Below are positions 43,343-61,954 of a stretch of DNA of 64,000 bases, piece by piece; the stretch's first letter is position 1, and the number at the start of each line of letters is the position of its first letter. Below the pieces are notes generated by a model. It ran no database searches. It was not told the origin of the DNA and saw nothing but the letters and a program-made list of their open reading frames with translations. The DNA is taken from positions 20,854 through 84,853 of the forward strand of contig JAYPYO010000003.1 of assembly GCA_038135995.1 (NCBI GenBank). Direction: 5' to 3'. The position numbers were made by a program, and so were the translations under genes. Origin of the DNA: Porticoccaceae bacterium. Its GTDB lineage: Bacteria; Pseudomonadota; Gammaproteobacteria; Pseudomonadales; Porticoccaceae.

Positions 43343-45931
43343 ATGAAAACATCATTCCGTACTATGAGTGCACTGGCTTTAGCCATTGCCACTGCTTCTG
43401 GTAGTGCTTATTCAGCACAGCTAGAAGAAGTAATAGTAACAGCGCAGAAACGCGCAGAAAGTATGCAGGACGTTCCTATATCCATGACAGCTGTCTCCGG
43501 AGATAAAATCCAGGAAGCAGGCATTCAAACCATGGGCGAGCTATCGGGCTATGTTCCTAACTTAAGCATTAGCGAAAATGCCGTGAATAGTATTATTACT
43601 ATGCGTGGTATCAGCGTTGGCGCCAACCAATCATTTGAACAATCTGTAGGTATTTTCGTCGATGGTGTTCACTACGGTAAGAGCCGTGAAATCAGAACCG
43701 GTTTGTTTGATCTTGGCCAGGTAGAGGTTTTGCGTGGACCACAGGGCATCCTGTTCGGGAAAAACACCCTAGCTGGCGCGATTAATGTGACATCTGCTTC
43801 CGCTGTTATTGGTGACGAAATGAACGGCAGAGTCAGTGTTGCCGCTGAAAGCTACGACGGTCAAACCGCTGAAGCAGTCATCAATATGCCAGTGTCCGAT
43901 AACATGGCCGTCAGATTGGCTTACAGAGACCGCAGCGATGATGGCTACATGGATAATGGCTTTGCAACCGCCGGGAATGGCGCAACTCCAACCATGCCGT
44001 CAACTGATGAACAAATTTGGCGTCTTTCCGCAACCTGGGAACCCAACGACTCCACTGTAGTGAAGCTTAAGCACTCAGAAAGTGACTTTGTTCGACGCGG
44101 CTCAACTGCAACTTTGGTCCGTTTTCAGCCTGAGGCAAATATAGCGGCATCTAACAGTCTCATGTATGGCGTTATGGGTGCAGTTTTCCCTACATATGGA
44201 GCTTCAGTGGCCGCTGCTGGAACCGGCAATACTGATGGCTTTAGAGACTCTATCAGCATAGGCGGTCTGGCTTTGGCTCAGAGTCTAGGTAGGGACCTCA
44301 ATGAAACAGAAGAGAAACCTGAGGGAACAGACACTCAGACCGCAGCAACATCACTTACTGTTGAATGGGAGTTGGCCAACGGCTACACCCTAACTTCTGT
44401 TACTGGATCGACAGGTTACGAATATGAAGACGGTATTGACGCAGACTTTTTACCTGTAAGCTTTATCGGTCGCAGTGATATTTCTGAGTATGATCAATTT
44501 AGTCAAGAAATTCGACTAGCCTCCCCAACTGATGGCAATTTCTCATGGATAGCAGGTGGCCAGATGCAATCAGCGGAGCAAGTAATTGATCGAACTGTAA
44601 TTTTTGATGGCACCGTGGGTCAACCAGGGCTGCTAGCCGCATTAACTGGCTGCAGAACGTTTTTGGCCATACCTGGTGGTGGCTGTGTTAATGGAGTAAC
44701 TGCTTTTGATAAGTCGGGCCGAGTGTCTACTTGGAAGACCGAAACAGACTCATTTGCGGTATTCCTCCAGGGTACTTATGACATTACTGACACCCTGAGC
44801 TTGACTGCTGGTGTTCGTTACACCGAAGAAGAAAAAGATGCGTATACGAAAGTAGACATCGTTCAGGATGCGGCTTTGGTGGATGGAGTTATGGTTAACG
44901 ACATTAGGAATCTTGCTACTCCTGATTCCAACCCATACAACGCTGCTCTCAATGGAGCCACCTTCGATTCATACGCTCACGAATTTGACGAAGATCGCAA
45001 GACAGACCAGCTAATGCCTGCCTTGAGTCTTGAGTGGGAAATGTCCGATACCAGTATGTTTTACATCAGCTATTCAGAGGGCTTCAAGAGCGGCGGCTTC
45101 AATGCTGTTGATAGCCAGATGCCAGCCTTTGATGCGGCGACAGGGGCTCCAATCTATGACGAGCCTGGTCTAGGTTTTGAATATGATGACGAGACAGCTG
45201 AGTCAATAGAATTTGGTGGTAAGCATACGCTGATGGATGGCGCCATGACTGTGAACTGGGCCATGTTCACAAGTGAGTATGTCGATCAGCAGGTTTCTAC
45301 TTTCGTAGGTCTGGGCTTCGTGGTGGCGAATGCTGCTAGCTCCGATGTTAAAGGAATGGAAGTCGATATGCAGTGGCAAGCTAGCGACAATCTCCGTTTT
45401 GGCGCGAACCTTGCGATACTTGACGCAGAGTATGGAAACTTTACCGCTGCTGGTTGTACTGCACAGCAAGACTCTGCGCTTTTGGGCTTGGGCACTTTGA
45501 CATCAGCCTCACCTGTAACATCGGCAATGGGCTGTTCCGCTCAGTTTAACGCGGCAGGCGCCAAAAGCGGTCAATCGCAGGATCTATCTGGCAGCGAATT
45601 TGGTGCCGGCCACTCAGGTTCTTTGACGGCTGACTACGCACGACCTCTGTCTAATGGTTTAGTCATGTTTGCTTCTGCAGACTACAACTTTACTGATGAC
45701 TTCAAGATGACTGGAGACCACGATCCTCTCGACGTCCAAGAGGCATATGGCAAGGTTAATCTGCGTTTCGGTATCCGTGCCGAGAACTGGGACTTCCTGA
45801 TCTATGGAAAGAACGTAACTGACAAGCAAACCGCTCAGGGAGCGTTCGATATTCCTCTTGCAAGCGGCTCGCATGGTCGATACCAGGACCAAGGCGAATT
45901 GTGGGGAGGTCGCTTTACTTACAGATTCTAA
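43343..45931 (+). CDS. TonB-dependent receptor
   Basis: Signal peptide, LEEVIVTAQKR, VEVLRGPQGILFGKNT.AGAINV, terminal FTYRF. Confidence 0.93.
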   Translation: MKTSFRTMSALALAIATASGSAYSAQLEEVIVTAQKRAESMQDVPISMTAVSGDKIQEAGIQTMGELSGYVPNLSISENAVNSIITMRGISVGANQSFEQSVGIFVDGVHYGKSREIRTGLFDLGQVEVLRGPQGILFGKNTLAGAINVTSASAVIGDEMNGRVSVAAESYDGQTAEAVINMPVSDNMAVRLAYRDRSDDGYMDNGFATAGNGATPTMPSTDEQIWRLSATWEPNDSTVVKLKHSESDFVRRGSTATLVRFQPEANIAASNSLMYGVMGAVFPTYGASVAAAGTGNTDGFRDSISIGGLALAQSLGRDLNETEEKPEGTDTQTAATSLTVEWELANGYTLTSVTGSTGYEYEDGIDADFLPVSFIGRSDISEYDQFSQEIRLASPTDGNFSWIAGGQMQSAEQVIDRTVIFDGTVGQPGLLAALTGCRTFLAIPGGGCVNGVTAFDKSGRVSTWKTETDSFAVFLQGTYDITDTLSLTAGVRYTEEEKDAYTKVDIVQDAALVDGVMVNDIRNLATPDSNPYNAALNGATFDSYAHEFDEDRKTDQLMPALSLEWEMSDTSMFYISYSEGFKSGGFNAVDSQMPAFDAATGAPIYDEPGLGFEYDDETAESIEFGGKHTLMDGAMTVNWAMFTSEYVDQQVSTFVGLGFVVANAASSDVKGMEVDMQWQASDNLRFGANLAILDAEYGNFTAAGCTAQQDSALLGLGTLTSASPVTSAMGCSAQFNAAGAKSGQSQDLSGSEFGAGHSGSLTADYARPLSNGLVMFASADYNFTDDFKMTGDHDPLDVQEAYGKVNLRFGIRAENWDFLIYGKNVTDKQTAQGAFDIPLASGSHGRYQDQGELWGGRFTYRF

Positions 45932-48716: not shown

Positions 48717-50996
48717 ATGATGTTACAACGGGTACTTATGATCACTGGCGGAGTGGCAGCTGTGGCTGTGATTTTTTTCTCTGGCTTGGCGCCAGATGCA
48801 AGCTATAGGCTATTGCCCGGTTACTTTCCGGATCCGGATCAGGCCTGGAGTGAAACGCCTCTGGAATTTGGACAGGTCAGCGAGACCAAGCTGCCGGCAG
48901 AGGTCGTAGGCCAGCGAGCCATCGGCGCCACAAGAGACGACAAGCAGATACTGTTTGGTGATACCCATGTACACACCACCAATTCAGCTGACGCCTTTAT
49001 GTACAGCTTGCCCATGATGCACGGTGCCTCGGGCGCCTATCCACCCGCCTATGCCTGTGACTATGCGCGCTTTGTGTCACAGCTGGATTTCTACTTTCTT
49101 ACCGATCACGCCGAGAGCTTTACCCCGCGCCAGTGGCGCGATGGCATAGACTCAGTGCAGCAGTGCAATCGCCTGGCTGGCGACCCTGACAACCCTGATA
49201 TTGCTGCTTTTGTCGGCTGGGAATGGACTCAGGTAGGCGGCACTGCAGAGAATCACTACGGCCACCATAATGTGCTGTTTAAGGATGACAGCACCGACCT
49301 GCTTCCGACACGACCCATAGCCTCTGTGGGTGTGGGCGTTGCCACAGTGGCCGCTCGCTCGGGCTCCGGTAAACAGTCCAGCCTGCTGGGGCTGCTAGAT
49401 CCGCGTCACCGCGACTATTATGCCTCCTACAATGACTGGGTAATGCAAATGGCCGCTGTGCCCGCCTGTGATCCAGACACTCCCAGCCCAGAGCTACCGG
49501 CGGAGTGCTACGAAACTGCTGCCACTCCGGGTCAGCTATTCGCCAAGTTAGACCAATGGGGCTTTGACAATATGGTAGTGCCCCATGGCACCACCTGGGG
49601 CTTCTACAGCCCCCCCAATTCAAACTGGCGCCATCAGCTCACCGCTGAAAACACTGACAATCAAAAGACCCGCTTAATTGAAGTCTATTCAGGCCATGGT
49701 AACTCAGAGCAGTACCGAGACTTTGCTGTTCGCAAGCTCAATGACGCAGGAGAATGGGTCTGCCCAGAGCCCCAAGCAAACTATCTGCCCAGCTGCTGGC
49801 AAGCAGGTGAAATTATCCGCCAGCGCTGTCTAACGGAGGGTACTGATGCTGGGGAGTGCGAAACCCGAGCCATTGAAGCCAGGCATAATTTTGTCCAGGT
49901 GGATGGCATTCAGGGCTTTATGACCGTGCCCGGCAGTACGCCCGAGGAGTGGTTAGATGCAGGCCAGGCCCGTGATATTTTCCTGCCGGCATTTAATTAC
50001 CGGCCACAAAAATCTGTGCAGTATGGCCTGGCCCTACAAAATTTTGATGATCCCGAAAATCCTTTGCGCTATCAATGGGGCTTTATAGGCTCTACCGATA
50101 CCCATTCCGCCCGCGCCGGCCATGGTTTTAAACAGCAACAGCGGCTCAATACCTCTGATGCCACTGGTGTGCGCAGCCCGTTCTGGGAGACTATTTTTGC
50201 CAGTTCCTCGGTAAGGCCAGAGCCTGGCTCCAGGTCCCTGAATGCGGACGAAATTGACCCGGCTAGCGCTAAACTCTATGCCTCGGAATTCGAGCGCACC
50301 ACCTCGTTTCTCAATGTGGGCGGACTGGCCGCGGTGCACTCTCAAGGCCGCAGCCGAGAAGCTATCTGGGATGCCATGAAGCGCCGCGAAGTTTACGGCA
50401 CCAGTGGCCACCGCATGCTGCTATGGTTTGATCTGTTGCAGGCAGGCTCTTCCCTGCCCATGGGTAGCTCAGTTGCCATGGATTCGGCACCCCGTTTTCG
50501 CGCCACAGCCATTGGCTCCTTTAAGCAGTTACCCGGCTGTCCGGACTATGTGGTAAATGCGCTGGAGAAGCGCCATCTGCAAAAAATGTCCCAGGGAGAA
50601 TGCTATCACCCCTCCGATGAGCGCTATGCCATTGAGCGTATCGAGGTAATCAAAATTCGGCCTCAATCTGTGGCAGGAGAACCTATTGCTCCATTGATTC
50701 AGGATAGTTGGCGGCAGTTTGACTGCGAGCCATCGCCCCAAGGCTGCACCATAGAATTTGAGGACCCCGACTTTGCAACTGAGGGTCGAGATGCACTCTA
50801 TTATGTGCGCGCTCTAGAAGAACCCATAGCAACCATTAATGGCGGCAATCTACGCACCAGTTTCGATGAAAATGGTCAGGCGGTGGATACAGATATGTGC
50901 TTTGGTGACTACCGGGTGGATATAGCTGACGAATGCCATCAAAACCAAAGCCAGAGAGCCTGGTCGTCACCTATCTTTGTCGACTTTAAACAATAA
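48717..50996 (+). CDS. DUF3604-family protein (PHP-like metallohydrolase fold), exported
   Basis: LFGDTHVHT, LTDHAE, WEWT, VPHG, IEVYSGHGNSE, GFIGSTDTH, EVYGTSG.R, YYVRALE, RAWSSPIF. Confidence 0.85.
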   Translation: MMLQRVLMITGGVAAVAVIFFSGLAPDASYRLLPGYFPDPDQAWSETPLEFGQVSETKLPAEVVGQRAIGATRDDKQILFGDTHVHTTNSADAFMYSLPMMHGASGAYPPAYACDYARFVSQLDFYFLTDHAESFTPRQWRDGIDSVQQCNRLAGDPDNPDIAAFVGWEWTQVGGTAENHYGHHNVLFKDDSTDLLPTRPIASVGVGVATVAARSGSGKQSSLLGLLDPRHRDYYASYNDWVMQMAAVPACDPDTPSPELPAECYETAATPGQLFAKLDQWGFDNMVVPHGTTWGFYSPPNSNWRHQLTAENTDNQKTRLIEVYSGHGNSEQYRDFAVRKLNDAGEWVCPEPQANYLPSCWQAGEIIRQRCLTEGTDAGECETRAIEARHNFVQVDGIQGFMTVPGSTPEEWLDAGQARDIFLPAFNYRPQKSVQYGLALQNFDDPENPLRYQWGFIGSTDTHSARAGHGFKQQQRLNTSDATGVRSPFWETIFASSSVRPEPGSRSLNADEIDPASAKLYASEFERTTSFLNVGGLAAVHSQGRSREAIWDAMKRREVYGTSGHRMLLWFDLLQAGSSLPMGSSVAMDSAPRFRATAIGSFKQLPGCPDYVVNALEKRHLQKMSQGECYHPSDERYAIERIEVIKIRPQSVAGEPIAPLIQDSWRQFDCEPSPQGCTIEFEDPDFATEGRDALYYVRALEEPIATINGGNLRTSFDENGQAVDTDMCFGDYRVDIADECHQNQSQRAWSSPIFVDFKQ

Positions 50997-51008: not shown

Positions 51009-51812
51009 ATGTCCACAGCACTAGTTACAGGCGCATCCGACGGCATAGGCCTGGAGTTTTGCAAAATTTTGGCCCGCCGCGGCTATGATCTTATTCTGGT
51101 GGCTCGTCGCGAGGCGGTGCTCAATGAAATCAGCGCAACTTTGATGACAGACCACGGGATTAGATGCACCGTTATTAGCAGTGATTTATCCAAATCAAAC
51201 GCTGCGCAAAGCCTATTTAAGGCCATTCAGAAGCAAGAGCTTCAGGTCGATTTTTTAATTAATAACGCAGGCCTGCTGCACAATGGCTTTTTTACCCATT
51301 TAAAGCTGGCTGACCAGGAAAAAATGATGAGGGTCAATATGATGGCACTGACCTCTCTGTGCCATCTGTTTGCCAATGATATGGCCGCCCGACAGGGAGG
51401 GCATATTCTCAATGTCGCCTCTCTGGCCGCCTGGATGCCCATACCCAATCAAAATATCTATGCGGCCACCAAAGCCTTTGTGCTGTCCTTCACCCAGGCA
51501 CTGCACAATGAGCTTAAAGCGGCGGGTACTGGTGTCACAGTCACTGCGCTCTGCCCCGGCTATACAGCAACCAAGATGATGGACAACCCCCAACAGGGCG
51601 CCAAACTGGCGATTCCTGACAGCATGATGCAGTCGGCTGCAGATGTGGCGGAACAGGGAATTAATGCCTGCCTCAAAGGCAAGGCAACCTGGATTCCAGG
51701 TTTTTCAAATCGGTTTACGGCGGCCATCACTCACCTGTTTTCAAAAATGGCACTGGCCCGGGTTGCAGGGAGCTTTTACCGCAAGAATTTAAGTCAATTC
51801 TCCTCACAATAA
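51009..51812 (+). CDS. Short-chain dehydrogenase/reductase
   Basis: TGASDGIG, LVARR, LINNAG, NVASLA, YAATK. Confidence 0.9.
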   Translation: MSTALVTGASDGIGLEFCKILARRGYDLILVARREAVLNEISATLMTDHGIRCTVISSDLSKSNAAQSLFKAIQKQELQVDFLINNAGLLHNGFFTHLKLADQEKMMRVNMMALTSLCHLFANDMAARQGGHILNVASLAAWMPIPNQNIYAATKAFVLSFTQALHNELKAAGTGVTVTALCPGYTATKMMDNPQQGAKLAIPDSMMQSAADVAEQGINACLKGKATWIPGFSNRFTAAITHLFSKMALARVAGSFYRKNLSQFSSQ

Positions 51813-51832: not shown

Positions 51833-52807
51833 ATGGCTCAGAAACAACCCAAAAAAGTATTGATCACCGGTGCCAATGGTTTTATCGGCAATCAGCTGAT
51901 GCAGTATTACAAGGCTCAGGGCATTGCCGCCGTGGGTGTTGACCTCTGTGGCAACGGCGATGACATTATCGAGGGCGATATTGCCGAGCCTGAAACCATC
52001 AGTGCGCAGCTTAGGGACTGCGATGTGGTGGTGCATACAGCTGCGCTGGTATCCAATTCGATTGCAGATGCAGATATGTGGCGCGTCAATGTACAGGCCA
52101 CGGGCAATTTGGTGGCCGCAGCTGAGAAATATAAGGTGCGGCGCTTTGTGCAGATTTCGTCCATCGTGGCCTATGGTAATTCGGCTGAGGGAGAGCTGGA
52201 CGAAACCCAGCCGGTACATGCTGATGGTGGCAGCTATGTTCTCACCAAGCTGGCCTCCGAGCATGCAGTGCTCACGGCCACCGCCAACAGCGCCATGGAG
52301 CTGGTGATTATTCGCCCCGGAGATGTCTATGGTCCTGGTAGTCGACCCTGGGTTATTCTGCCTATAGAGGCGATCAAAAAAGGCCAGTTTATGCTGCCAG
52401 CCCAAGGTGAGGGTTTCTTCCGCCCCATCTATATCGATGACCTGATTCGCGGCATTGCCCTAGCTGTATCCACCAAAGAAGCCAGTGGTCAAATTTTTAA
52501 TCTGTCCTGTGAAGGTTATATGACTACCAAGGAATTCTTTAGCCACCATTACCGCTGGATGAACAAGCGCGGACCCCTGACCCTACCCACCAGGCTGACA
52601 CTGATAGCTGCTGCAGCGGCCACCAAAATTGCCGACCTGACAGGCGGAGTTAACGAGGCCTCAACGGCGACTGTGACTCAGCTCTGCACCAAAAGCTGGT
52701 TCAGTATTGCCAAGGCTGAGAAAATACTGGGCTGGAAACCAGAGATGCCCTTTGAGGAGGGGATGCAGCGTTCGAAAACCTGGGCTCAGCAACAGGGTCT
52801 TATTTAA
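51833..52807 (+). CDS. NAD-dependent epimerase/dehydratase (extended SDR, 3beta-HSD-like)
   Basis: TGANGFIG, VVHTAA, NVQAT, ISSIVAYG, YVLTK..SE, IRPGDVYGPG. Confidence 0.88.
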   Translation: MAQKQPKKVLITGANGFIGNQLMQYYKAQGIAAVGVDLCGNGDDIIEGDIAEPETISAQLRDCDVVVHTAALVSNSIADADMWRVNVQATGNLVAAAEKYKVRRFVQISSIVAYGNSAEGELDETQPVHADGGSYVLTKLASEHAVLTATANSAMELVIIRPGDVYGPGSRPWVILPIEAIKKGQFMLPAQGEGFFRPIYIDDLIRGIALAVSTKEASGQIFNLSCEGYMTTKEFFSHHYRWMNKRGPLTLPTRLTLIAAAAATKIADLTGGVNEASTATVTQLCTKSWFSIAKAEKILGWKPEMPFEEGMQRSKTWAQQQGLI

Positions 52808-52810
52808 TAA

Positions 52811-53833
52811 TCACTGATCGCTGCGGTAGGAACCTGCGGTGCGGCCAGTCCACTGTTTAAAGCTGCGATAAAAAGACCGCGCCTCGGCATAGCCCAGCTC
52901 GTAGGCAATGCTCTCTAGGTTGAGTTGGGTGTTTTTCAGGTAGTACAGGGCCAACTCCAGACGCAGCTCATTTAGCACATCGCTGTAATGTGTGCCCTCT
53001 TCCCCCAGCTTGCGCTGCAAGGTGCGACTGCTCATGCCCAGCTTTTCGGCTATCACTGTGCTTGACGGGGTCTGCTGTTTCAGCATCAATCGCAATAGGC
53101 TCTTCACCTGATCGGACACCCGATGATGCTGGGTGATCTCTGCTAAAAGACGCGTGGCGTGCTCCAGCAACATCTCGAGTAATTTTTCATTGGCCTGGGG
53201 CAGTGGCACATCCAACTCTGACTCTTTAATGCGCAGGCCACTGGCGGGCTGGTTAAAAAGCACCTCACAGCCAAACACCTCAGTGTAGTCCATCAACAAG
53301 GCAGGGTCAGCCGGTGGTTCATGCTCAAACCAAACCTGATCATGGGGTGCAAAATTGAGAAAATTCCGCGCATAGGTCACCCATGAGCCCAGCACATGCT
53401 CAACCTCATGACGTTTGGCCTGGGGGCTACTAAATTTGCAGTGCCAGCGCTGCAAGGCAAAACCATCAGCGATTTCTACACTGGTCACACCCATATCGCC
53501 GACAAGTTTTTCATAGATAGGAATCTTGGCCTGGATCATGCGCAATGTAGAGCAATTCATGCAAATATAGCCCAGTACCGAATAGGACGAGGGCTCGATA
53601 AACTGGGAGGCATGCAGACCAAAACACTGGTCGCCGCTCACCCCAATCAGCAGCTCCAGCAATTGTTCCATAGCAGCGGCGGAAATATGGTTATTATTGT
53701 CTGCCAGTATTTCTACATCTATGCCGACCTGCTCCAGTAACGGCAAATAATCTACCCCGCAAGCCTGCGCCGATTTAAGATATTGATTGATAGCAGGCAC
53801 TGAGGCCAGATTATTACCGCTGGTTTCCAACAT
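52811..53833 (-). CDS. AraC-family regulator (Arabinose_bd_2 / OruR-like N-terminal domain)
   Basis: C-terminal IAEKLGMSSRTLQRKL..EG, IAYELGYAEARSFYRSFKQWTG.T.G.YR. Confidence 0.92.
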   Translation of the reverse strand: MLETSGNNLASVPAINQYLKSAQACGVDYLPLLEQVGIDVEILADNNNHISAAAMEQLLELLIGVSGDQCFGLHASQFIEPSSYSVLGYICMNCSTLRMIQAKIPIYEKLVGDMGVTSVEIADGFALQRWHCKFSSPQAKRHEVEHVLGSWVTYARNFLNFAPHDQVWFEHEPPADPALLMDYTEVFGCEVLFNQPASGLRIKESELDVPLPQANEKLLEMLLEHATRLLAEITQHHRVSDQVKSLLRLMLKQQTPSSTVIAEKLGMSSRTLQRKLGEEGTHYSDVLNELRLELALYYLKNTQLNLESIAYELGYAEARSFYRSFKQWTGRTAGSYRSDQ

Positions 53834-53894
53834 AAGTCTGTTTATTATCCTGTTACTGAATACTGCGCATCAAGCCTGTGGCTGACCGAAATAG

Positions 53895-53976
53895 TGACTC
53901 AGCTGTCGTACTGCGACAGTGATCATTTTCACCGTCGCTTTATTATGGACATTATTGAATATAGTATGACTCAGCT
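53895..53976. promoter_or_regulatory. Direct repeat TGACTCAGCT x2 in the AraC divergent region (candidate operator)
   Basis: Exact 10-mer at 53895-53904 and 53967-53976. Confidence 0.3.
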
Positions 53977-54087
53977 CTGTAGTTTAGGGTAGACCCCTAA
54001 CCTCTTAACATTGACAGAGTATAGTCACCAGAGGGCGTTTTCTCCTGCGCCCTATAACTAAAAATAATACCGATAAAGGTGGGTAAT

Positions 54088-55707
54088 ATGCGACTCTGGA
54101 ATGGCTGGGGAAATGAAGATAGCGAGCTAAAGATGGACCTTAACAGCGGCTTGAAGATGCTGCTTGGGGCCCTGGTGGGACCCGGAGTCTCACTACCTCA
54201 GGCCAGTCTACAAGAGGTCGTAGCCAAGGTGCCAAAGTCGCGACTCGATACTCACCCGCTTATAAGTTTAGACCCGGAGACAAGAGTCCGTCATGCCCGT
54301 GGCCAGAGTCTGCCCGACTGGCTGGCAATGCGCAGCGGTGAAGTTGACAGCTTTCCCGATGGTGTGGCGCTGCCGGAGTCCAGCCAGCAGGTGCGCGAAT
54401 TACTGCAGTATGCAGCGGATCACAATATCGAGGTAATTCCCTATGGCGGCGGCACCTCGGTGGTTGGGCATATTAACCCCAACGCCAGTCAGCGGCCCGT
54501 GCTAACTATCAGTATGGCAAACATGAACCAGTTGCTTGATCTCGACCCTGTCAGCCAGCTGGCTACTTTTGGCGCTGGCACTCCAGGACCGGAGATTGAG
54601 GCTCAACTGCAGGCCAAAGGCTTTACTCTGGGTCATTTTCCCCAGTCCTGGGAACTGTCCACAGTGGGCGGCTGGGTCGCCAGTCGCTCCAGCGGTCAGC
54701 AGTCATTGCACTACGGCCGCATTGAAGCCATGTTTGCCGGTGGCAGCATGGAAACCCTCAAAGGCACCATGGATATACCCACTGTCCCGGCCTCCTCGGC
54801 GGGGCCAGATATTCGCGAGATGGTACTGGGCTCTGAGGGCCGCATGGGTATTATTACCCAGGTGGTGGTGCGGGTGACGCCAGTACCGGAAACTGAGCAG
54901 TTTCAGGTGGTTTTCTTCCCGTCCTGGGACGCTGGGCTCAATGCAGCGCGCAATTTGGTACAGCAGCGTGTCGCCCTGTCTATGGTGCGGTTAAGCAACC
55001 CCTTGGAGACCACCAGTCTGCTGCATATGGGGGCTGGCGAAGATACTGCTGGAGTGGCTGCTCTGGAAGCGGCCCTGGCCGAAAAAGGCATTGGGTCAGG
55101 CAAGGTAATGATGACCTTTGCCGTTACCGGCAGCGCCAAGCACTGCGCCCATGCCAGTGACACAGCCATAGAAGTCTGCGTCCATGAGGGCGGAGTTGCT
55201 GACCAGTCTGGACTGGGTGACAACTGGGCCCATGGTCGCTTCCGCGCACCCTATGTTCGCGACCCGCTGGGCACAGCCGGCTATGCCGTGGATACTATGG
55301 AAACCGCAGTAGACTGGTCAAAGGTAACAGAATCCATGGATAAAATTGAACAGGCTATTCGCACAGGTCTGGCAGATGAGGGTGAGCAGGTGCATGCCTA
55401 CACCCATCTCAGCCATGTCTATGGCCAGGGCTCAAGTATATACACCACCTATGTATATCGCTTTGGCGATAGTTATCAGCAGGCATTGCAGCGCTGGCAT
55501 AAACTTAAAACAGCAGGCGCTGAGCAGATTGTTGCCTGCGGAGGCACAATTAGCCATCAGCATGGCGTGGGAGCAGATCATCGCAACTACTTGCAGGCCG
55601 AGAAAGGAGAGCTGGGTATTGCCGCCATAAACAGTCTCTGCCAACTCTTTGACCCCAAGGGTCAGATGAATCCAGGCAAACTGTTGCCCGATGCAGAGCA
55701 AATTTAA
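54088..55707 (+). CDS. FAD-binding oxidoreductase, alkyl-dihydroxyacetonephosphate synthase (AGPS)-like
   Basis: MRLWNGWG, PYGGGTSV.G, GHFPQSWELSTVGGW, GSEGRMGIIT, SHQHGVG, DPKGQMNPGKL. Confidence 0.82.
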   Translation: MRLWNGWGNEDSELKMDLNSGLKMLLGALVGPGVSLPQASLQEVVAKVPKSRLDTHPLISLDPETRVRHARGQSLPDWLAMRSGEVDSFPDGVALPESSQQVRELLQYAADHNIEVIPYGGGTSVVGHINPNASQRPVLTISMANMNQLLDLDPVSQLATFGAGTPGPEIEAQLQAKGFTLGHFPQSWELSTVGGWVASRSSGQQSLHYGRIEAMFAGGSMETLKGTMDIPTVPASSAGPDIREMVLGSEGRMGIITQVVVRVTPVPETEQFQVVFFPSWDAGLNAARNLVQQRVALSMVRLSNPLETTSLLHMGAGEDTAGVAALEAALAEKGIGSGKVMMTFAVTGSAKHCAHASDTAIEVCVHEGGVADQSGLGDNWAHGRFRAPYVRDPLGTAGYAVDTMETAVDWSKVTESMDKIEQAIRTGLADEGEQVHAYTHLSHVYGQGSSIYTTYVYRFGDSYQQALQRWHKLKTAGAEQIVACGGTISHQHGVGADHRNYLQAEKGELGIAAINSLCQLFDPKGQMNPGKLLPDAEQI

Positions 55708-55727
55708 GTACCCAGAGCGCTAAGGCC

Positions 55728-57323
55728 ATGAACCAAAACTCCTCTCGTAATTCACTGCTAGCTGATATGCGTCAGGGTCAATCCCTCGACTGGGATATGA
55801 TTATAGTCGGCGGCGGCATCACCGGTGCCGGTGTGCTGCGCGAAGCTGTGCGGCGAGGCTACAGAGCTCTGTTGTTGGAACAGCAAGATTTTTCTTGGGG
55901 AACATCGAGCCGCTCTTCAAAAATGGTTCATGGCGGTCTGCGCTATCTGGCGGCTGGCGATATAGGTCTGACTAGGGATTCACTGCGAGAGCGAGAGCGC
56001 CTTTTAAAAGAGGCCCCGGGGCTGGTTGATCGCATTGCCTTTTACTTTGCTCTGGGCAAGGGCAACTTCCCTGGCCGTTTCGCCATGAGCGTTATTCTTA
56101 CCATCTATGATTTTCTGGCGCGCATTCGCGATCACCGCTATTGCAATAATCAGGCGCTGGCAAAGCATTTCCCGGGCGTGGAAACCGAAAATTTAAACGG
56201 CGCCTGTTACTACACAGATGCCATGGTCGATGACTCCAGGCTGGTACTCCGGGTGCTACAGGAGAGCATGGATGAGGGTGGTCAGGCACTTAATTACTGC
56301 AAGGTTAGCCAGTTGCTACTGACTGATGACCAGGTCAGTGGTGTAGTCATAGAAGACCGGGAGCATGGCGCTAGTATCCAGTTAAATGCTCCCGTGGTTA
56401 TCAGTGCCACCGGAGCCTGGGCAGATCGCTTGCGCAATCAACTCAACCCGGAAAAACGTGTACGGCCGCTGCGCGGCAGCCACCTGATTATCCCTAAATC
56501 CATTTGCCCAGTGACCGATGTTCTCACCTCGCTGCATCCTCAAGATAAACGTGGCGTCTATGTCTACCCCTGGGAGGGCACCACAGTCATAGGCACCACA
56601 GATCTTGATCACAATGAAGACCTGGATATTGAAGCCAGTATTTCCCCTGAGGAAACCCAGTATTTACTCGATGGCTACAACGCACTATTTCCTCAAAGTC
56701 CACTGTCCCGCGACCAGGTAATCTCAACCTGGGCTGGTGTGCGACCGGTTATAGGTTCTGAAAATGCTAAGGATCCCTCAAAAGAGCGTCGAGACCATGC
56801 CACCTGGTCAGACAAGGGTTTGATTACCCTCAGTGGCGGCAAGCTCACTACCTTTAGACTCATCGCGCTGGATGGGATTCAAGCTGCCCAAGACAGACTG
56901 CCAGAGCCTAAACCCTTTGAGCATGACCAGGTGTTTAGCACACCGAATATTGCGGCTTCAGCCCTGGTGCCAGAGAACCCGGCCTGGGGGCAGCGCCTGC
57001 TGGGGCGCTACGGAGACCGTGCTCAGGAGATCTTGGCCCTGGCCTGTGTCGAGGAGAGGCAACCCATTGGCGATAGCGAATTTTGCCTGGCCGAATGCCG
57101 TTGGGCGGCGCGCCATGAGCAGGTACAGCACCTTGATGATCTGCTGCTGCGACGCACCAGGCTGGGTATGTGTCTGGCCGATGGTGGAGCTGAGATATTT
57201 GCCCCTGTCAGAGAAATCTGCCGTGCAGAACTGGGTTGGAATGAGGAGCAGTGGCAGTCTGAGCTCAGCCGCTACCAGGATATTTGGCAGCGCTTTTACT
57301 ATTTTCCTGAGCACAAAAAATAA
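55728..57323 (+). CDS. Glycerol-3-phosphate dehydrogenase/oxidase family (GlpD-like) flavoprotein
   Basis: VGGGITG, GTSSRSSKMVHGGLRYL, NATG-like SATGAW, RGSHL, IGTTD, WAGVRP, GGKLTT.R, DLLLRRTR. Confidence 0.88.
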   Translation: MNQNSSRNSLLADMRQGQSLDWDMIIVGGGITGAGVLREAVRRGYRALLLEQQDFSWGTSSRSSKMVHGGLRYLAAGDIGLTRDSLRERERLLKEAPGLVDRIAFYFALGKGNFPGRFAMSVILTIYDFLARIRDHRYCNNQALAKHFPGVETENLNGACYYTDAMVDDSRLVLRVLQESMDEGGQALNYCKVSQLLLTDDQVSGVVIEDREHGASIQLNAPVVISATGAWADRLRNQLNPEKRVRPLRGSHLIIPKSICPVTDVLTSLHPQDKRGVYVYPWEGTTVIGTTDLDHNEDLDIEASISPEETQYLLDGYNALFPQSPLSRDQVISTWAGVRPVIGSENAKDPSKERRDHATWSDKGLITLSGGKLTTFRLIALDGIQAAQDRLPEPKPFEHDQVFSTPNIAASALVPENPAWGQRLLGRYGDRAQEILALACVEERQPIGDSEFCLAECRWAARHEQVQHLDDLLLRRTRLGMCLADGGAEIFAPVREICRAELGWNEEQWQSELSRYQDIWQRFYYFPEHKK

Positions 57324-57356
57324 CTCGCAAAAGCAATAATAAAAATGGTGGTAGTT

Positions 57357-58910
57357 ATGCATAAACCGGCCTATTTTCTAGCTATAGACAATGGCACCCA
57401 GAGTGTCCGTGCCATGATCTTTGACCAGTCTGGTACTTTGGTCGCTAAGAGCAAAGTGGCTATTGAACCCTATTTTTCGACCCAGCCCGGCTGGGCAGAA
57501 CAGAAAGCAGAGTATTTTTGGTCGTCATTATGCGAGGCCTGCCAACAGCTATGGCCCATGGTCGATTTTCCTATCGAAGAAATCTGCGGCGTATCCATTA
57601 CTACCCAGCGTGCCACCGCTGTGCCCATGGATGCCAATCACCAGCCGGTGCGCCCCGCTATCACCTATATGGACCAGCGCCAGGTAGATACCCAGCCCCC
57701 ACTGGGGGCCCTGGAGTCTGCCCTGATGAAGCTGATCAAGGCCAAAGGCTTTGTTGACCAGGTACACCAACAAGCCGAGGCTAGCTGGATGGCTCAGGAG
57801 GAACCAGAGCTCTGGGCTAAGGTAGATAAATTTCTATTGCTATCCGGCTATCAAACTTATCGGCTCACAGGTGAATACAGAGATGCTATTGCCAGTCAGG
57901 TAGGCTATGTGCCCTTTGATTTTAAGCAACTTGACTGGGCTGCAGCCTCAGACTGGAAGTGGCGTGCTGTGCCCATTACCCCTGAGATGCTTCCAGAGTT
58001 AAAACCTGCAGGCGAAATACTGGGCCATATAACGCCAGAAGCGGCACAGCAAACAGGAATTCCTGTGGGTCTACCGGTGATTTCCAGTGGTTCTGATAAA
58101 GCCTGCGAAGTCCTGGGCACCGGCTGTCTGGATACAGAAACCGGCAGCCTTAGCTACGGCACCATGGCCACCCTCAATATTACCAGTGATAAATATTTAG
58201 AGGCTATAACCTATCATCCAGCCTACCCTGGGGTGATCCCCGGCTCCTTTAATGTGGAAGTCATGGTCGAGCGCGGCTACTGGATGGTCAACTGGTTTAA
58301 ACAGCAATTTGGTCTGCATGAGCAAACTCTGGCCGACAAAGCTGGTGTCGCCCCGGAAACCCTGTTTGATGAGCTTTTAAAGGCGGTGCCCGCTGGCTCA
58401 ATGGGTCTGACCTTACAGCCCTACTGGGGCACTGGAACCAACAGTGCCGGGCCAGAGGCCAAGGGTGCCATTGTAGGTTTTAGCGATGTGCACACCAGGG
58501 CCCATATGTACCGAGCTATGATTGAGGGCCTTACCTATGCTCTGCGCGAAGGCAAGGAGCTGCTCGAAAAACGCAGCGGTAAATCTCTGAGCCGCCTGGT
58601 GGTCTCCGGCGGAGGCTCCCAGAGCGATCAAATTATGCAGATTACTGCAGATATTTTTGGCATGCCCGTGGAGCGGCCCCATACCTATGAGGCATCTGGC
58701 CTGGGCGCCGCTATTGCCACCGCAGTGGGCACTGGCACCCATCCGGACTTTGAGACAGCTGTGCAGCTAATGACCCATGTGGCGGACCGCTTTGAGCCAA
58801 TACCCGCTAACCAGCAGATATACAATGACCTCTACAACCAGGTGTACAGACAGATGTACAGACACCTAAAACCCAGTTATCAGGCAATTAAATCCATTAT
58901 TGGGCTGTGA
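57357..58910 (+). CDS. FGGY-family carbohydrate/polyol kinase
   Basis: LAIDNGTQSVRA, ITTQR, GSDKAC, LSYGT, YRAMIEGL, SGGGSQS, EASGLGAA. ATG 57357 has a GGTGG SD. Confidence 0.9.
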   Translation: MHKPAYFLAIDNGTQSVRAMIFDQSGTLVAKSKVAIEPYFSTQPGWAEQKAEYFWSSLCEACQQLWPMVDFPIEEICGVSITTQRATAVPMDANHQPVRPAITYMDQRQVDTQPPLGALESALMKLIKAKGFVDQVHQQAEASWMAQEEPELWAKVDKFLLLSGYQTYRLTGEYRDAIASQVGYVPFDFKQLDWAAASDWKWRAVPITPEMLPELKPAGEILGHITPEAAQQTGIPVGLPVISSGSDKACEVLGTGCLDTETGSLSYGTMATLNITSDKYLEAITYHPAYPGVIPGSFNVEVMVERGYWMVNWFKQQFGLHEQTLADKAGVAPETLFDELLKAVPAGSMGLTLQPYWGTGTNSAGPEAKGAIVGFSDVHTRAHMYRAMIEGLTYALREGKELLEKRSGKSLSRLVVSGGGSQSDQIMQITADIFGMPVERPHTYEASGLGAAIATAVGTGTHPDFETAVQLMTHVADRFEPIPANQQIYNDLYNQVYRQMYRHLKPSYQAIKSIIGL

Positions 58911-58913
58911 TAC

Positions 58914-60263
58914 CTAGCTGAGCAAATGCTCTTTTTGGCAATAATCCAGTGTTGCATCTAGCGCCGGGGCTACCTTGTCGATCATTTCATCAATCTGTTC
59001 ATGGGTAATGATCAGCGGCGGACAAAAGCCGAGACAGGAGCCTGCCACCGTGCGAATAAGTAAGCCATTGTCCTGCGCCATCTTCTGCGCATAACCGCCA
59101 ACTGTACCGCCGGCAAAAGGCTCGCCTGTGTCTTTATTGGCCACTAACTCCAAGGCGCCAATTAAGCCACTGCCGCGCACCTCGCCAACCAGCGGATGAT
59201 CAGCAAATTCCGCCAAACGCTTTTGCAGATAAGCACCAGTGACGGCAGCTTTTTCAAAAATCTTGTCACGCTGATAAATCTCCAGTGTCTTATTGGCAAC
59301 AGCACAGGCTACCGGATGACCAGAGTAAGTATAACCATGACCAAAGGCACCGGCACTGGCGCTCTGCTCTATCATGGCATCGTACATTTCACGGCGAATA
59401 GCAGAGGCGCTAATCGGCATATAGGCCGACGACAGCTGTTTGGCAAAGGTCATCATATCTGGCGACTCTATGCCCATGGTGGTGCAACCAAAATCATTGC
59501 CCGTGCGGCCAAACCCGGTGATAACCTCATCGGCCCAAAACATAATGTCGTAGCGATCAAGCACGGCTTGAACCTTCTGGTAGTAGCCCTCCGGTGGCAC
59601 AATCACACCACTGGCGCCAGTAATAGGCTCGGCGATAAAGGCGGCAATTGTCTCAGGCCCTTCACGCACAATCAGATCCTCAAGATTGCCCACAATACGA
59701 TCGACAAACTCGGCTTCCGATTCATCACCCTGTTTACCTCGATAATAATGGGGGTGATCGGTGCGCAGAATACCCAGAGCATCCACAGGCAAATCAAAGT
59801 GATTCTGGGTTACCGGAAGGCCGGTCAATGAAGCAGCAGCTACGGTTACACCGTGGTAGGAACGCTCTCGAGCAATAATCTTGCGGCGCTCCGGCTTGCC
59901 TATGGCCTCATGGTAATAGCGCAGTAATTTAATATGCGTGTCATTGGCATCGCTGCCAGAGTTACCAAAGGACAGTACTGCATCATCCATTGGAATCATA
60001 TCGGCCAGTCTATCTGCCAGATCAATAGCCACCTGATGAGTCTTACCACCAAACATATGGCTAAAGGTCAGCTTGCTCATCTGCTCGCTGGTAGTATCAA
60101 TCAGCTCCTGATTGCCGTAACCCAGAGCTGTGCACCAGAGACCAGCCAGGCCCTCTAGATACTGCTTGCCATCTTTATCCCAAACATAACAGCCCTCACC
60201 CCGCTCAATGGTGATCTGTTCAATGGCTTTAAAGTTGGTTGTTGGATAAATTAAGTGGGTCAT
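58914..60263 (-). CDS. Class III PLP aminotransferase (omega-amino acid/putrescine:pyruvate type)
   Basis: YLEGLAGLWC, SGSDAND, SYHG.T, AAFIAEPI.G..GVIVPP, DEVITGFGRTG, TFAKQLSS.Y.P, HGYTYSGHP. Confidence 0.92.
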   Translation of the reverse strand: MTHLIYPTTNFKAIEQITIERGEGCYVWDKDGKQYLEGLAGLWCTALGYGNQELIDTTSEQMSKLTFSHMFGGKTHQVAIDLADRLADMIPMDDAVLSFGNSGSDANDTHIKLLRYYHEAIGKPERRKIIARERSYHGVTVAAASLTGLPVTQNHFDLPVDALGILRTDHPHYYRGKQGDESEAEFVDRIVGNLEDLIVREGPETIAAFIAEPITGASGVIVPPEGYYQKVQAVLDRYDIMFWADEVITGFGRTGNDFGCTTMGIESPDMMTFAKQLSSAYMPISASAIRREMYDAMIEQSASAGAFGHGYTYSGHPVACAVANKTLEIYQRDKIFEKAAVTGAYLQKRLAEFADHPLVGEVRGSGLIGALELVANKDTGEPFAGGTVGGYAQKMAQDNGLLIRTVAGSCLGFCPPLIITHEQIDEMIDKVAPALDATLDYCQKEHLLS

Positions 60264-60291
60264 TGTGATTCCTTAATACCTTGTTATTGTT

Positions 60292-61755
60292 TTACTGGTC
60301 TATACCACCCATACAGATATATTTAATATCCATATAGTCATCCATACCGTACTTGGAGCCCTCGCGACCGCTGCCGGACTCTTTAATACCGCCAAAGGGC
60401 GCCATCTCATTGGAAATAATGCCCTCGTTAACACCAACAATGCCGTATTCCAACTGCTCCGCCACACGGTGAACTCGGCCTATATCTCGGGAATAGAAAT
60501 AAGCAGCCAGACCAAACTCTGTGTCATTGGCCATTTGTACCGCCTGCTCCTCAGTCTCGAACTTAAATAACGGCGCCACAGGCCCAAAAATCTCCTCCGA
60601 GAACACCCGCATATCTCTGCTGACATCAGTGAGAATAGTAGGCTCGACAAAGTTGCCTCCCAGTTCACTGCGGCCGCCACCCAGGGCAACGGTGGCGCCC
60701 TTGGCCACAGCATCATCAATAAATTCACAGACTCCTGTGGCAGCCTTTTCATCAATCAGTGGGCCGACTGTAACCCCCTCTTCTGCGCCATTGCCCAGTA
60801 CCAGAGTTTTCACTGCTGCACTGAGTTTGGCGGCAAATTGATCATAGATCCCCGCCTGAATAATCAACCGATTGGAACAGACACAGGTCTGGCCGGCATT
60901 GCGATATTTGGATACCAGAGCGCCCTGCACTGCAGCGTCAATATCGGCATCATCAAATATAATAAAGGGCGCATTGCCTCCCAGCTCCATAGAGGTGCGC
61001 TTAACCGTCTGGGCACATTCCGCCATCAGCTGTTTGCCCACCGGTGTGGATCCGGTAAAGGTGACTTTGCGCACTATTGGGTTACTGGTGATCTCGGCGC
61101 CAATCTCTGCGGTGCGGCCAGTGACCATATTCACCAGTCCCTTAGGGAATCCAGCGCGCTCGGCCAGTTCCATCAGAGCCAGTGCTGACAGGGGCGTGGC
61201 ATTGGCTGGCTTACAGACTACGGCGCAGCCAGCAGCGATCGCAGGCGCAATTTTTCGCGTCAGCATGGCATTGGGGAAATTCCAGGGGGTGATACAGGCC
61301 ACCACCCCCACAGGCTGTTTGATGACCATAATCCGCTTGTCAGCGGAGGGCTGGGGAATAATATCGCCGTAAACCCGCTTGGACTCTTCACTAAACCACT
61401 CGGCATAGTTGGCACCATAGGCAATTTCGCCTCTGGCTTCGGCCAATGGCTTGCCTTGCTCTGCAGTCAACAGCCTGGCCAGATCTTCTTGATTTTCCAT
61501 GATCAGGTTAAACCATTTACGCAACAGCCCGGCTCGCTCTTTAGCAGTGGTTTTGGCCCAGGCACTCTGTGCCGCCTGCGCAGCCTCAATCATTCGTCTG
61601 GTCTCGGCGGTGCCACATTTGGCAACCTCAACCAGTGTTTCACCAGTGGCTGGGTTGGTCACCGCGAGGGTTTCGCCAGAATCGGCGCTGAGCCACTGGC
61701 CATCTATATAAGCCTGTGACTTAATTAAGCTGCTATCGCTGAGTGTCAATGTCAT
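60292..61755 (-). CDS. gabD: NAD(P)-dependent succinate-semialdehyde dehydrogenase
   Basis: [65 protein letters not shown]. Confidence 0.9.
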
Positions 61756-61954
61756 TGGAATTTCCATTATTTATCTAGGTTGCAGGTATTTAAGATTCTT
61801 AGTGTCCATGCATAGCTCATTTGGCACAAATAATGATTCACTGCCCTGATGGGAACAATACCCATGATTAGGTAGATAGACAGCTGGTAATGGCAGACGA
61901 GGGACTACAAGGGACCCTCGAAAACCTGTAATCTGAGGAACAGAGGGGAACAAA

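Follow-up and report, generated by a model that had tools for sequence, protein, structure and literature searches.

The occurrence in a Porticoccaceae genome of an AGPS-like flavoenzyme in one operon with a GlpD-like dehydrogenase and an FGGY-family kinase raises the question of which compound these enzymes process, and whether they synthesise or cleave glycerol ethers. Analysis of the 64,000-nucleotide stretch of DNA containing this operon (hereafter the window) recovered the four open reading frames proposed in an earlier note on the sequence, with an AraC gene divergent from a three-gene operon, among the following features:

43343..45931, + strand: TonB-dependent outer-membrane receptor (Pfam Plug and TonB_dep_Rec_b-barrel)
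46132-50996: SurA/HupE/DUF3604 cassette, lying between the TonB receptor and the SDR pair in the window
51009-51812, + strand: classical SDR, paired with the extended SDR
51833-52807, + strand: extended SDR, paired with the classical SDR
52811..53833, - strand: AraC-family regulator, GliR-like, 340 aa (Pfam Arabinose_bd, 1.3e-33, and HTH_18)
53880..53935, no strand: operator-like box in the AraC/operon intergenic region, conserved in alignment
54088..55707, + strand: AGPS-like FAD enzyme, 539 aa (Pfam FAD_binding_4 and FAD-oxidase_C)
55728..57323, + strand: GlpD-like FAD dehydrogenase, 531 aa (Pfam DAO and DAO_C)
57345..58910, + strand: FGGY-family kinase of a distinct subfamily, 521 aa (Pfam FGGY_N and FGGY_C)

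A Porticoccaceae copy of the gliR cluster

The genes of the trio are separated by gaps of 20 and 21 nt, and a convergent aminotransferase gene abuts the FGGY kinase downstream. The ORF lister had started the flavoenzyme at GTG 54079; its true start is almost certainly ATG 54088 (MRLWNGWG, with aaaggtggg upstream), since homologues begin there and the window's own database entry has 539 aa.

The locus is the Porticoccaceae (SAR92) counterpart of the P. aeruginosa gliR/PA3026-PA3024 cluster (PMC8151288), the block that the earlier note had correctly given as PA3027-PA3024, and presents the same four genes in the same order and orientation. Judging from sequence, identities to the Pseudomonas loci L021 and L026 (AraC 44-46%, AGPS-like 57-58%, GlpD-like 46-49%, kinase 57-58%) are at the level of orthologues. 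The PA3023-type DAGK lipid kinase present in the Pseudomonas loci is, however, absent downstream in the window, where the convergent aminotransferase is found instead, and the Porticoccaceae module is extended by the TonB receptor and the two SDRs. The regulatory elements also differ. The window AraC scores 352.9 bits with the NCBIfam GliR model (NF050186), under its cut-off of 570, and the P. aeruginosa GliR motifs A and B had no match in 53834-54087 with up to two mismatches allowed. The operator-like box contains a different palindrome, CTGTCGT-N-CGACAG, within a block (CTGACCGAAATAGTGA...CTGTCGT....TGACAGTGA) that is kept in an alignment of the window with loci L008, L010, L011 and L012, spanning the Porticoccaceae and Halieaceae.

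The trio is a widespread enzyme set, already described in P. aeruginosa. Among 150 Porticoccaceae genomes, the AGPS-like gene was identified in 36 and the GlpD-like gene in 37, adjacent to each other and in the same genomes bar the one extra. In about 68 of 81 loci, drawn from many phyla (Pseudomonadota, Chloroflexota, Bacillota, Myxococcota, Thermodesulfobacteriota, Vulcanimicrobiota and others), the AGPS-like gene is followed by the GlpD-like one, and the kinase comes third in 53 of the 81; the arrangement is therefore far beyond chance. The module was found in sulfate reducers as well as in Chloroflexota.

The flavoenzyme and its dehydrogenase partner

The motifs previously quoted from the flavoenzyme (GHFPQSWELSTVGGW, GSEG and SHQHGVG) are all present in its translation. 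A PDB sequence search returned AGPS structures as best matches (2uuu, 1.2e-68; 4bby, 9e-59), and the AlphaFold model (pLDDT 90.5) could be superposed on AGPS along its entire length (TM 0.82-0.88), with D-lactate dehydrogenase as the next-best fold class (TM 0.70). Residues R304, R394 and Y455, at positions invariant in 65 aligned loci, align with R352, R447 and Y508 of Dictyostelium AGPS, the catalytic roles of which have been described (PMC3509576). Alignment to guinea-pig AGPS 4bby set H493-Q494-H495 opposite His615-His616-His617, so that the histidine of the HHH motif that the earlier note had seen changed to Gln is the middle one; Gln occupies this position in 60 of the 65 loci, Pseudomonas loci included, and the H-Q-H form is all but fixed within the clade of the flavoenzyme. 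As had been suggested from its motifs, the flavoenzyme is, on the evidence of its model and of the alignments, AGPS-like in both fold and catalytic residues.

It is highly improbable that the flavoenzyme is an ordinary VAO/D-lactate dehydrogenase-type redox enzyme, acting without ether chemistry on a hydroxy compound supplied by the other two enzymes. It does belong to the FAD_binding_4/FAD-oxidase_C superfamily, and the His-to-Gln change makes its site not identical to that of AGPS, but it has both the N-terminal region peculiar to AGPS and the AGPS fold over its whole length, the Arg, Arg and Tyr that mark AGPS catalysis do not vary, and D-LDH-type enzymes are clearly more distant both in score (84 bits, versus 235 for AGPS) and in the fold comparison above.

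In the tree, the flavoenzyme and the Pseudomonas loci fall in one clade, separate from the clade containing a eukaryotic AGPS and an acyltransferase-fused bacterial AGPS. The window enzyme has in common with AGPS/ADPS (EC 2.5.1.26; 2uuu, 4bby) and M. xanthus MXAN_1676 its fold over the full length, its FAD domain and N-terminal RWNGWG region, the Arg, Arg and Tyr of catalysis, and two of the three HHH-loop histidines, the first and the third; it differs in the Gln at the middle position and in belonging to a clade apart from that of the eukaryotic enzyme, and identity is only about 25-35%. Its partners are a GlpD-like dehydrogenase and a kinase, whereas that of MXAN_1676 is the FAR/GNPAT acyltransferase MXAN_1675. 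No conserved acyltransferase or fatty acyl reductase was detected among 63 operon neighbours of the module, which, together with the separate clade, sets the flavoenzyme apart from biosynthetic AGPS. The direction of the reaction likely differs too, with cleavage in the window enzyme and synthesis in AGPS and MXAN_1676.

The GlpD-like protein scores 271 bits with the best NCBIfam GlpD model, under its cut-off of 360, and matches 3da1 (6.8e-69) and E. coli GlpD 2qcu (3.4e-51) in the PDB. It keeps the motifs HGGLRYL, WAGVRP and GGKLTT, which we take to be the site of the glycerol 3-phosphate (G3P)-binding residues in E. coli GlpD, and no other GlpD homologue in the genome has the first of these motifs in its standard form; for these reasons it may still be a plain G3P oxidase. 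Natural AGPS-like::GlpD-like fusion proteins of about 1100 aa, with the GlpD-like part C-terminal, were identified in four separate 50%-identity clusters (P0168, P0191, P0194 and P0216), the members of which include Fidelibacterota and Calditrichota proteins. These fusions support two enzymes acting in consecutive steps, and make non-consecutive steps unlikely.

The kinase and ordinary glycerol use

The FGGY kinase scores under the NCBIfam cut-offs for XylB (256 vs 380) and GlpK (163 vs 590), and the true GlpK of the same genome (738 bits) sits on another contig, so the module kinase is not the housekeeping glycerol kinase. When 45 module-type FGGY kinases, the window's included, were aligned with the genome's own GlpK, all 45 retained the Arg of the NQRET motif and the catalytic Asp, and the Glu, Tyr and Phe positions were replaced. 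A search of five same-genus genomes without the module found no DAO_C gene, and four of the five retain GlpK. Deletion of PA3026-PA3024 left P. aeruginosa growth on glycerol unaffected, and none of the media and BIOLOG plates tried revealed a mutant phenotype (PMC8151288). Given the separate GlpK, the module-free genomes without DAO_C and this deletion result, the module is unlikely to serve ordinary glycerol catabolism.

These data bear on the scheme published by Kotecka et al. (2021), in which the kinase converts glycerol to G3P, the GlpD-like enzyme yields DHAP, an unlinked acyltransferase forms acyl-DHAP and the flavoenzyme forms alkyl-DHAP. The kinase and the GlpD-like enzyme would here constitute a second glycerol pathway. 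This agrees with domain-level annotation and with the presumed G3P-binding motifs of the GlpD-like protein, but appears improbable: the kinase is without the GlpK substrate residues and far under the GlpK cut-off, GlpK is separate and persists in genomes without a GlpD homologue, the operon deletion had no glycerol phenotype (PMC8151288), and the dehydrogenase-flavoenzyme fusion speaks against non-consecutive steps.

Substrate and direction of the pathway

Each of the two SDR genes is present in 32 of the 150 Porticoccaceae genomes, in the same 32 and always as a neighbouring pair, and all but one of these also carry the AGPS-like gene. Orthologues of the TonB receptor (E <= 1e-150) were detected in 22 of the 150, adjoining the SDR pair, and all 22 carry the module. 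In L009, G019, G046 and G065, the SDR pair lies directly upstream of the trio on the same strand, with no intervening AraC gene, and in the last three the receptor, SDR, extended SDR, AGPS-like and GlpD-like genes form one co-directional array.

In other phyla, a FadR-type regulator stands in for AraC: a GntR/FadR_C regulator is found directly 5' of the module in 14 loci from five phyla, and members of this family are acyl-CoA sensors. The regulators of the module are of the substrate-responsive, catabolic type, which, together with the TonB receptor of the module array and the recurrent third-place kinase, suggests a starting compound that is imported and unphosphorylated. A link to lipids is indicated by the FadR_C regulators, by the DAGK-type lipid kinase of the Pseudomonas loci, by the phospholipase C included in the published GliR regulon (PMC8151288), and by a GDSL lipase and a PhoD-type phosphatase that are occasional neighbours of the module.

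The nature of the imported compound allows for more than one reading. All characterised FGGY kinases are generally understood to use soluble substrates (water-soluble sugars and polyols), we know of none acting on a lipid, and TonB receptors are not the usual lipid import route; for these reasons the substrate may be a polar glycerol ether instead of a long-chain alkylglycerol. The same three steps would then act on a hydrophilic leaving group, as in a deacylated betaine-lipid backbone (glyceryl-trimethylhomoserine) or a 1-O-glycosylglycerol, or on a related polyol. Import through a TonB receptor suggests a compound that is polar or amphiphilic, phytoplankton products sustain SAR92-group bacteria, and the kinase pocket is unlike that of GlpK. 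The kinase and GlpD-like pair also recalls erythritol catabolism, where EryA and EryB are an FGGY-type kinase and a GlpD-like polyol-phosphate dehydrogenase, the shared logic being phosphorylation of a polyol and oxidation of the neighbouring secondary alcohol by a GlpD-family flavoprotein. In the window, however, the third enzyme is AGPS-like where erythritol catabolism has an isomerase set, ery-type genes are absent, and window-type modules have lipid-type regulators in other phyla. Polar-ether catabolism is rendered quite doubtful by the FadR_C regulators, lipid kinase and phospholipase C, which point to long-chain lipids; moreover, glycosides are normally split by glycosidases, and no gene for handling betaine or sugars is conserved among the operon neighbours of the module.

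Ether-lipid synthesis, or ester-to-ether remodelling, is a serious rival, if a rather unlikely one. The GlpD-like enzyme would oxidise 1-acyl-G3P (lysophosphatidic acid) to acyl-DHAP, the kinase possibly phosphorylating monoacylglycerol; like true AGPS, the AGPS-like enzyme would swap acyl for fatty alcohol; one SDR would reduce alkyl-DHAP to alkyl-G3P and the other would help make the fatty alcohol. In its favour, the flavoenzyme has the fold and catalytic residues of AGPS, acyl-DHAP would suit the fusions just as well as the shared intermediate, and the SDR pair and the presence in sulfate reducers and Chloroflexota are as compatible with synthesis as with cleavage. Some members of two module-carrying phyla, the Thermodesulfobacteriota and Chloroflexota, make alkyl glycerol ethers. 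An NAD-dependent epimerase-family protein, comparable to the extended SDR, is likewise encoded in the M. xanthus operon that is proven to be biosynthetic (PMC9131029). Nevertheless, synthesis leaves the kinase and the TonB receptor without an obvious role, the module has no conserved acyltransferase or FAR-type reductase neighbour, the clade lies apart from that of the eukaryotic AGPS and the acyltransferase fusion, and the regulators are of catabolic type. To our knowledge, moreover, ether lipids have not been reported from the module carriers Pseudomonas, Marinobacter and Psychrobacter. The reverse direction, which the earlier note had allowed, thus keeps its standing as a rival, but with an outer-membrane importer attached to the trio the breakdown of ready-made glycerol ethers fits better.

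From its gene content, we tentatively read the module as serving to take up 1-O-substituted glycerols, most likely alkylglycerols, and to cleave them without oxygen. With expression switched on by the divergent AraC regulator, a ready-made 1-O-substituted glycerol, most plausibly a 1-O-alkylglycerol freed from ether lipids, or its precursor, would be imported by the TonB receptor. The FGGY kinase would phosphorylate the free primary hydroxyl, and the GlpD-like flavoprotein would oxidise C2, passing electrons to quinone and yielding a 1-O-substituted dihydroxyacetone phosphate. In the ensuing AGPS chemistry, the Tyr would deprotonate C1, a covalent flavin N5 adduct would form and the O-linked group would leave, the products being the alcohol and, through water acting as acceptor, DHAP. 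The two SDRs might, speculatively, carry the fatty alcohol to aldehyde or acyl-CoA and back. Expelling an alkoxide from alkyl-DHAP amounts to running the second AGPS half-reaction backwards; it is chemically more demanding than the loss of a carboxylate, and we did not find it documented in the literature. The order from kinase to dehydrogenase to AGPS-like cleavage, already put forward in the earlier note, is one that we infer, and we favour it over the published synthesis scheme because the fusions, the strict co-inheritance and the attached TonB receptor fit it.

Alkylglycerol phosphorylation is a real entry step in mammals, where the alkylglycerol kinase ACAD10 serves salvage into membrane lipids and not cleavage (PMC13596139). 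ACAD10 and alkylglycerol monooxygenase (AGMO) have the proposed substrate class, 1-O-alkylglycerols, in common with the module, and their protein families are unrelated to it. AGMO requires O2 and tetrahydrobiopterin, whereas the route proposed here would need neither, with oxygen entering in none of its steps.

The GliR-type locus and its surroundings

The locus comprises an AraC-type regulator gene, divergent across a 254-nt spacer from a plus-strand trio separated internally by gaps of 20 and 21 nt. The host bacterium belongs to the SAR92 group of the Porticoccaceae and has a genome of 2.3 Mb.

Genes of the locus and their Pfam domains
52811-53833, minus strand: AraC regulator; Arabinose_bd (PF12625, 1.3e-33) and HTH_18 (PF12833)
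54079-55707 (ORF), plus strand: FAD-linked oxidase resembling alkyl-dihydroxyacetonephosphate synthase (AGPS-like); FAD_binding_4 and FAD-oxidase_C
55728-57323, plus strand: GlpD-like dehydrogenase; DAO and DAO_C
57345-58910, plus strand: FGGY kinase; FGGY_N and FGGY_C

An earlier note on this DNA had delineated the same four ORFs, and the Pfam searches recovered them at these coordinates with the domains it described; the motifs it quoted for the FAD enzyme were likewise found in the translation. The flavoenzyme most likely starts at the ATG at 54088 (MRLWNGWG), where its homologues begin, and not at the GTG nine bases upstream. A purine-rich ribosome-binding stretch precedes this ATG.

At both ends, the unit formed by the regulator and the trio meets convergent genes, with 3 nt between stop codons (52807/52811, extended SDR against AraC; 58910/58914, kinase against class-III aminotransferase) and no terminator-like site at either junction. 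The kinase side carries two class-III aminotransferases and a succinate-semialdehyde-dehydrogenase-like ALDH (58914-61767 and 62603-64000). The ALDH scores just under its equivalog cut-off (777 vs 828 bits), and no conserved adjacency of the aminotransferases and ALDH to the module was detected in other taxa.

In Pseudomonas aeruginosa, GliR (PA3027) has been described to activate the divergent PA3026-PA3024 operon, together with PA3023, which encodes a lipid kinase, and a gene for a phospholipase C (PMC8151288). Kotecka et al. 2021 proposed a route leading from glycerol to alkyl-DHAP and left its chemistry open, and deletion of the operon produced no phenotype, glycerol included (PMC8151288). 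The top match of the AraC protein is the NCBI model of P. aeruginosa GliR, with 352.9 bits against a cut-off of 570, which by this score makes it a GliR relative and, under NCBI's rule, not an equivalog. The order of the AGPS-like, GlpD-like and FGGY genes matches that of the Pseudomonas genes, and the AGPS-like proteins fall in the same clade of the tree. Compared with Pseudomonas loci of the same layout, the four proteins are 44-58% identical (46-58% for the three enzymes), which, together with the shared layout, indicates that the locus is a further example of a described, unsolved operon type. The module is already in the literature, and the window locus adds one more member. It differs in lacking a downstream counterpart of the PA3023-type DAGK/YegS lipid kinase gene, the place of which is taken by the convergent class-III aminotransferase; among the loci compared, a DAGK_cat gene was present only in those of Pseudomonas.

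The promoter regions also differ. No match to the P. aeruginosa GliR motifs A and B was found in 53834-54087 with up to 2 mismatches allowed. The spacer instead contains an operator-like box (53880-53935) with the palindrome CTGTCGT-N-CGACAG, unlike the GC-rich motifs published for P. aeruginosa, which is kept in the AraC/operon spacer of four Porticoccaceae and Halieaceae loci (L008, L010, L011 and L012). A promoter/terminator scan marked this box as terminator-like. Between the box and the start codon lie some 100 nt (53936-54060) that are absent from four aligned relatives and hold the second copy of a 10-mer, TGACTCAGCT, repeated in the promoter region. This 10-mer was discarded as an element, being unconserved in relatives and not above chance in the window.

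Assignment of the three enzymes

The closest solved relatives of the flavoenzyme by sequence are the AGPS of Dictyostelium (E 1e-68) and guinea pig (E 1e-58), and its AlphaFold model (pLDDT 90.5) superimposes on both (2uuu and 4bby) with Foldseek TM scores of 0.82-0.88 over some 560 columns, that is, over the full length including the N-terminal region. D-lactate and glycolate dehydrogenases gave much weaker PDB sequence matches, and D-lactate dehydrogenases reached a TM of 0.70 to the model; that the flavoenzyme is a plain redox enzyme is regarded as extremely improbable. Mutagenesis of Dictyostelium AGPS has revealed that R352, R447 and Y508 matter (PMC3509576). Their aligned equivalents, R304, R394 and Y455, are invariant in 65 aligned related loci and nearly invariant among 125 wider representatives. 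H493-Q494-H495 aligns to His615-617 of guinea-pig AGPS, the HHH loop. The Gln is not a private mutation, since 60 of the 65 clade loci carry it; the clade also includes four loci in that same context that keep HHH, the form present in 110 of the 125 wider representatives.

In a FastTree phylogeny of 178 sequences, for which only local supports were computed, every locus with a neighbouring GlpD-like gene groups with the query in a 74-row clade (support 99). P0241, the only eukaryotic AGPS in the set, groups with the acyltransferase fusion P0206 apart from the query, in a clade of 17 rows (support 100). P0206 (801 aa, from a metagenome) is a natural fusion of a PlsC/GNPAT-type acyltransferase to AGPS, and a candidate bacterial single-protein unit making acyl-DHAP and then alkyl-DHAP. 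Myxococcus xanthus MXAN_1676, a proven biosynthetic AGPS, shares about 42% identity with human AGPS and neighbours genes encoding a FAR-GNPAT fusion and an NAD-epimerase-family protein (PMC9131029). Such a context was not seen at the present locus, where the partners are the GlpD-like dehydrogenase and the kinase, and a Pfam census of 63 operon neighbours returned no FAR or GNPAT-type acyltransferase. In an Archangium genome, a search for an additional AGPS of the biosynthetic type, with FAR/acyltransferase genes as partners, was negative and recovered just the GlcDEF genes of glycolate oxidase and one FAD oxidase, unlinked.

The GlpD-like protein presents the motifs HGGLRYL, WAGVRP and GGKLTT in alignment to 3da1, with residue roles that we take from E. 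coli GlpD, and scores under the cut-offs of the GlpD equivalog models (271 vs 360 for NF008899; 239 vs 352 for NF009906). The kinase is far under those of both XylB (256 vs 380) and GlpK (163 vs 590), and a true GlpK (738 bits) is encoded on another contig of the same genome. In GlpK, glycerol is bound by Arg83, Glu84, Trp103, Tyr135, Asp245 and Phe270; across 45 aligned kinases of the present type, the equivalents of the GlpK Arg and catalytic Asp are kept, the Glu84 position is occupied by Gly or Ala, and the Tyr135 and Phe270 positions are not kept. As judged from sequence, the cluster is probably not one of ordinary glycerol catabolism.

Within the same genus, five genomes that are close to complete but devoid of the AGPS-like gene contain no DAO_C-containing gene, and GlpK is kept in four of them. 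The genomes combining a GlpK-type kinase with the absence of any GlpD-family (DAO_C) gene are G030, G083, G142 and G144. It appears that GlpK can operate in this genus with no flavin-linked G3P dehydrogenase to follow it. The sole other GlpD homologue in the window's own genome (G000:C10:24385-24591; locus L007:220-1821) encodes 533 aa, is 28% identical to that of the cluster and carries VWGGIKYL where the latter has HGGLRYL. The gene immediately downstream is GH31 alpha-xylosidase-like, which suggests for this homologue a possible role as a sugar- or polyol-phosphate dehydrogenase, and not as GlpD.

Gene linkage, fusions and co-inheritance

An AGPS-like gene followed by a GlpD-like gene was the rule in 80 loci from named genomes spanning at least nine phyla, and the FGGY kinase came third in 53 of 81 loci. 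Furthermore, among the best 150 representatives drawn from 1.8 billion proteins, four separate clusters consist of fusion proteins some 1100 aa long, AGPS-like in the N-terminal half and GlpD-like (DAO and DAO_C) in the C-terminal half. Their members are of diverse origin, Fidelibacterota and Calditrichota MAGs among them, and fall in other branches of the 178-sequence tree than the query, indicating that the partnership is old and widespread. In the 150 Porticoccaceae species genomes, the AGPS-like gene is present in 36 and the GlpD-like gene in 37; the two sets differ by a single genome, and the genes lie side by side.

Both the fusions and the strict co-inheritance speak for the two flavoproteins catalysing successive reactions. 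This does not agree with the published glycerol scheme, in which an unlinked acyltransferase step intervenes between them, and we consider that scheme very improbable for the module. The census of the 63 same-strand operon neighbours revealed no further conserved partner, suggesting that the core is a self-contained unit that could turn a 1-O-substituted glycerol into DHAP and an alcohol. Ten more neighbours were mostly unrelated (P-type ATPase, YicC, GGT, YhdP), the exceptions of note being a GDSL lipase and a PhoD-type phosphatase. One of the 63 (loci L009-L087) belongs to the TMEM164 family (3.7e-57), the animal member of which is an acyltransferase acting on ether phospholipids.

Two further elements accompany the module in the Porticoccaceae. 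The classical and extended SDR genes (51009-51812 and 51833-52807 in the window) occur in 32 of the 150 genomes, in an identical set for both and always adjacent, and are co-inherited with the module. PDB sequence searches with the two SDRs returned only generic epimerase/dehydratase and SDR matches; fatty alcohol, aldehyde and acyl-CoA might be their substrates and products, a role that would suit either direction of the pathway. An orthologous TonB-dependent receptor (43343-45931, plus strand) is confined in this family to module-bearing genomes, where it lies beside the module, and in three genomes receptor, SDR, extended SDR, AGPS-like and GlpD-like genes form one co-directional array. In the window, receptor and SDR pair are separated by a cassette (46132-50996) of two SurA-like genes, a HupE-UreJ gene and a DUF3604 gene, the product of the latter being an exported hydrolase. 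The relatives G104 and G116 each present a gap of about 5 kb with the same cassette, and in other genomes of the genus, such as G015, the receptor abuts the SDR pair. The cassette looks like an insertion into the island.

Direction, substrate and implications

The reading that we tentatively favour, at somewhat below even probability, is that the module cleaves imported glycerols bearing a 1-O-substituent, most likely an alkyl group. The kinase and the quinone-linked dehydrogenase would turn such a glycerol, 1-O-alkylated or otherwise 1-O-substituted, into the corresponding DHAP derivative, and the AGPS-type flavoenzyme would then run the ether-forming half-reaction in reverse, with water as acceptor, to yield an alcohol and DHAP. 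AGPS-type chemistry could plausibly release an alkoxide in this way if its second half-reaction ran backwards, with water replacing the fatty acid; no documentation of it was found in the literature. The presence of a kinase implies an unphosphorylated starting material and favours an imported compound, as do the substrate-responsive regulators and the restriction of the TonB receptor to module-bearing genomes, beside the module. GlpD-type quinone-linked flavoproteins work in the oxidising direction, which points the same way. The earlier note had proposed phosphorylation, oxidation and ether cleavage of alkylglycerols in this order, allowing for the reverse direction. That interpretation is supported in part: fusions and co-inheritance favour consecutive flavoprotein steps, and the kinase and TonB receptor favour the processing of an imported compound.

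The opposite direction, ether-lipid synthesis or ester-to-ether remodelling from lysophosphatidic acid, is compatible with the AGPS-like::GlpD-like fusions, with the SDRs and with the occurrence of the module in sulfate reducers and Chloroflexota; we regard it as a serious rival, though a rather unlikely one. As to the substrate, a link to long-chain lipids is suggested by GntR/FadR_C regulators directly upstream in 14 loci (Chloroflexota, Bacillota, Myxococcota, Thermodesulfobacteriota and Actinomycetota), by the DAGK-type kinase and phospholipase C of Pseudomonas, and by GDSL lipase and PhoD-type phosphatase genes as sporadic neighbours. We know of no FGGY kinase with a lipid substrate, and the cargo of TonB receptors is usually polar, which makes a polar, non-lipid glycerol ether a real, if distinctly unlikely, alternative.

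Marine animals, protists, some bacteria and sediments are rich in ether lipids, and to our knowledge the only well-defined ether-cleaving enzyme is alkylglycerol monooxygenase, which requires oxygen. The literature searched contained neither a characterisation of the module nor a defined bacterial pathway of ether-lipid breakdown or alkylglycerol catabolism. The bearers of the module include SAR92 bacterioplankton, sulfate reducers and Pseudomonas, and it might possibly, though this is put forward with some doubt, provide bacteria with a widespread means of cleaving the glycerol ether bond without oxygen, which would fill this gap. The three enzymes are few, soluble and open to testing under either direction, and the fusions, the co-inheritance and the attached importer narrow the candidate substrates to a short list. 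Cleavage of imported alkylglycerols, if true, would represent the first pathway of ether-lipid catabolism to be defined in bacteria, would account for the turnover of such lipids in anoxic habitats and would give the GliR regulon of P. aeruginosa a function. If the module makes ether lipids instead, its bearers would be new bacterial sources of alkyl glycerol ether biomarkers.
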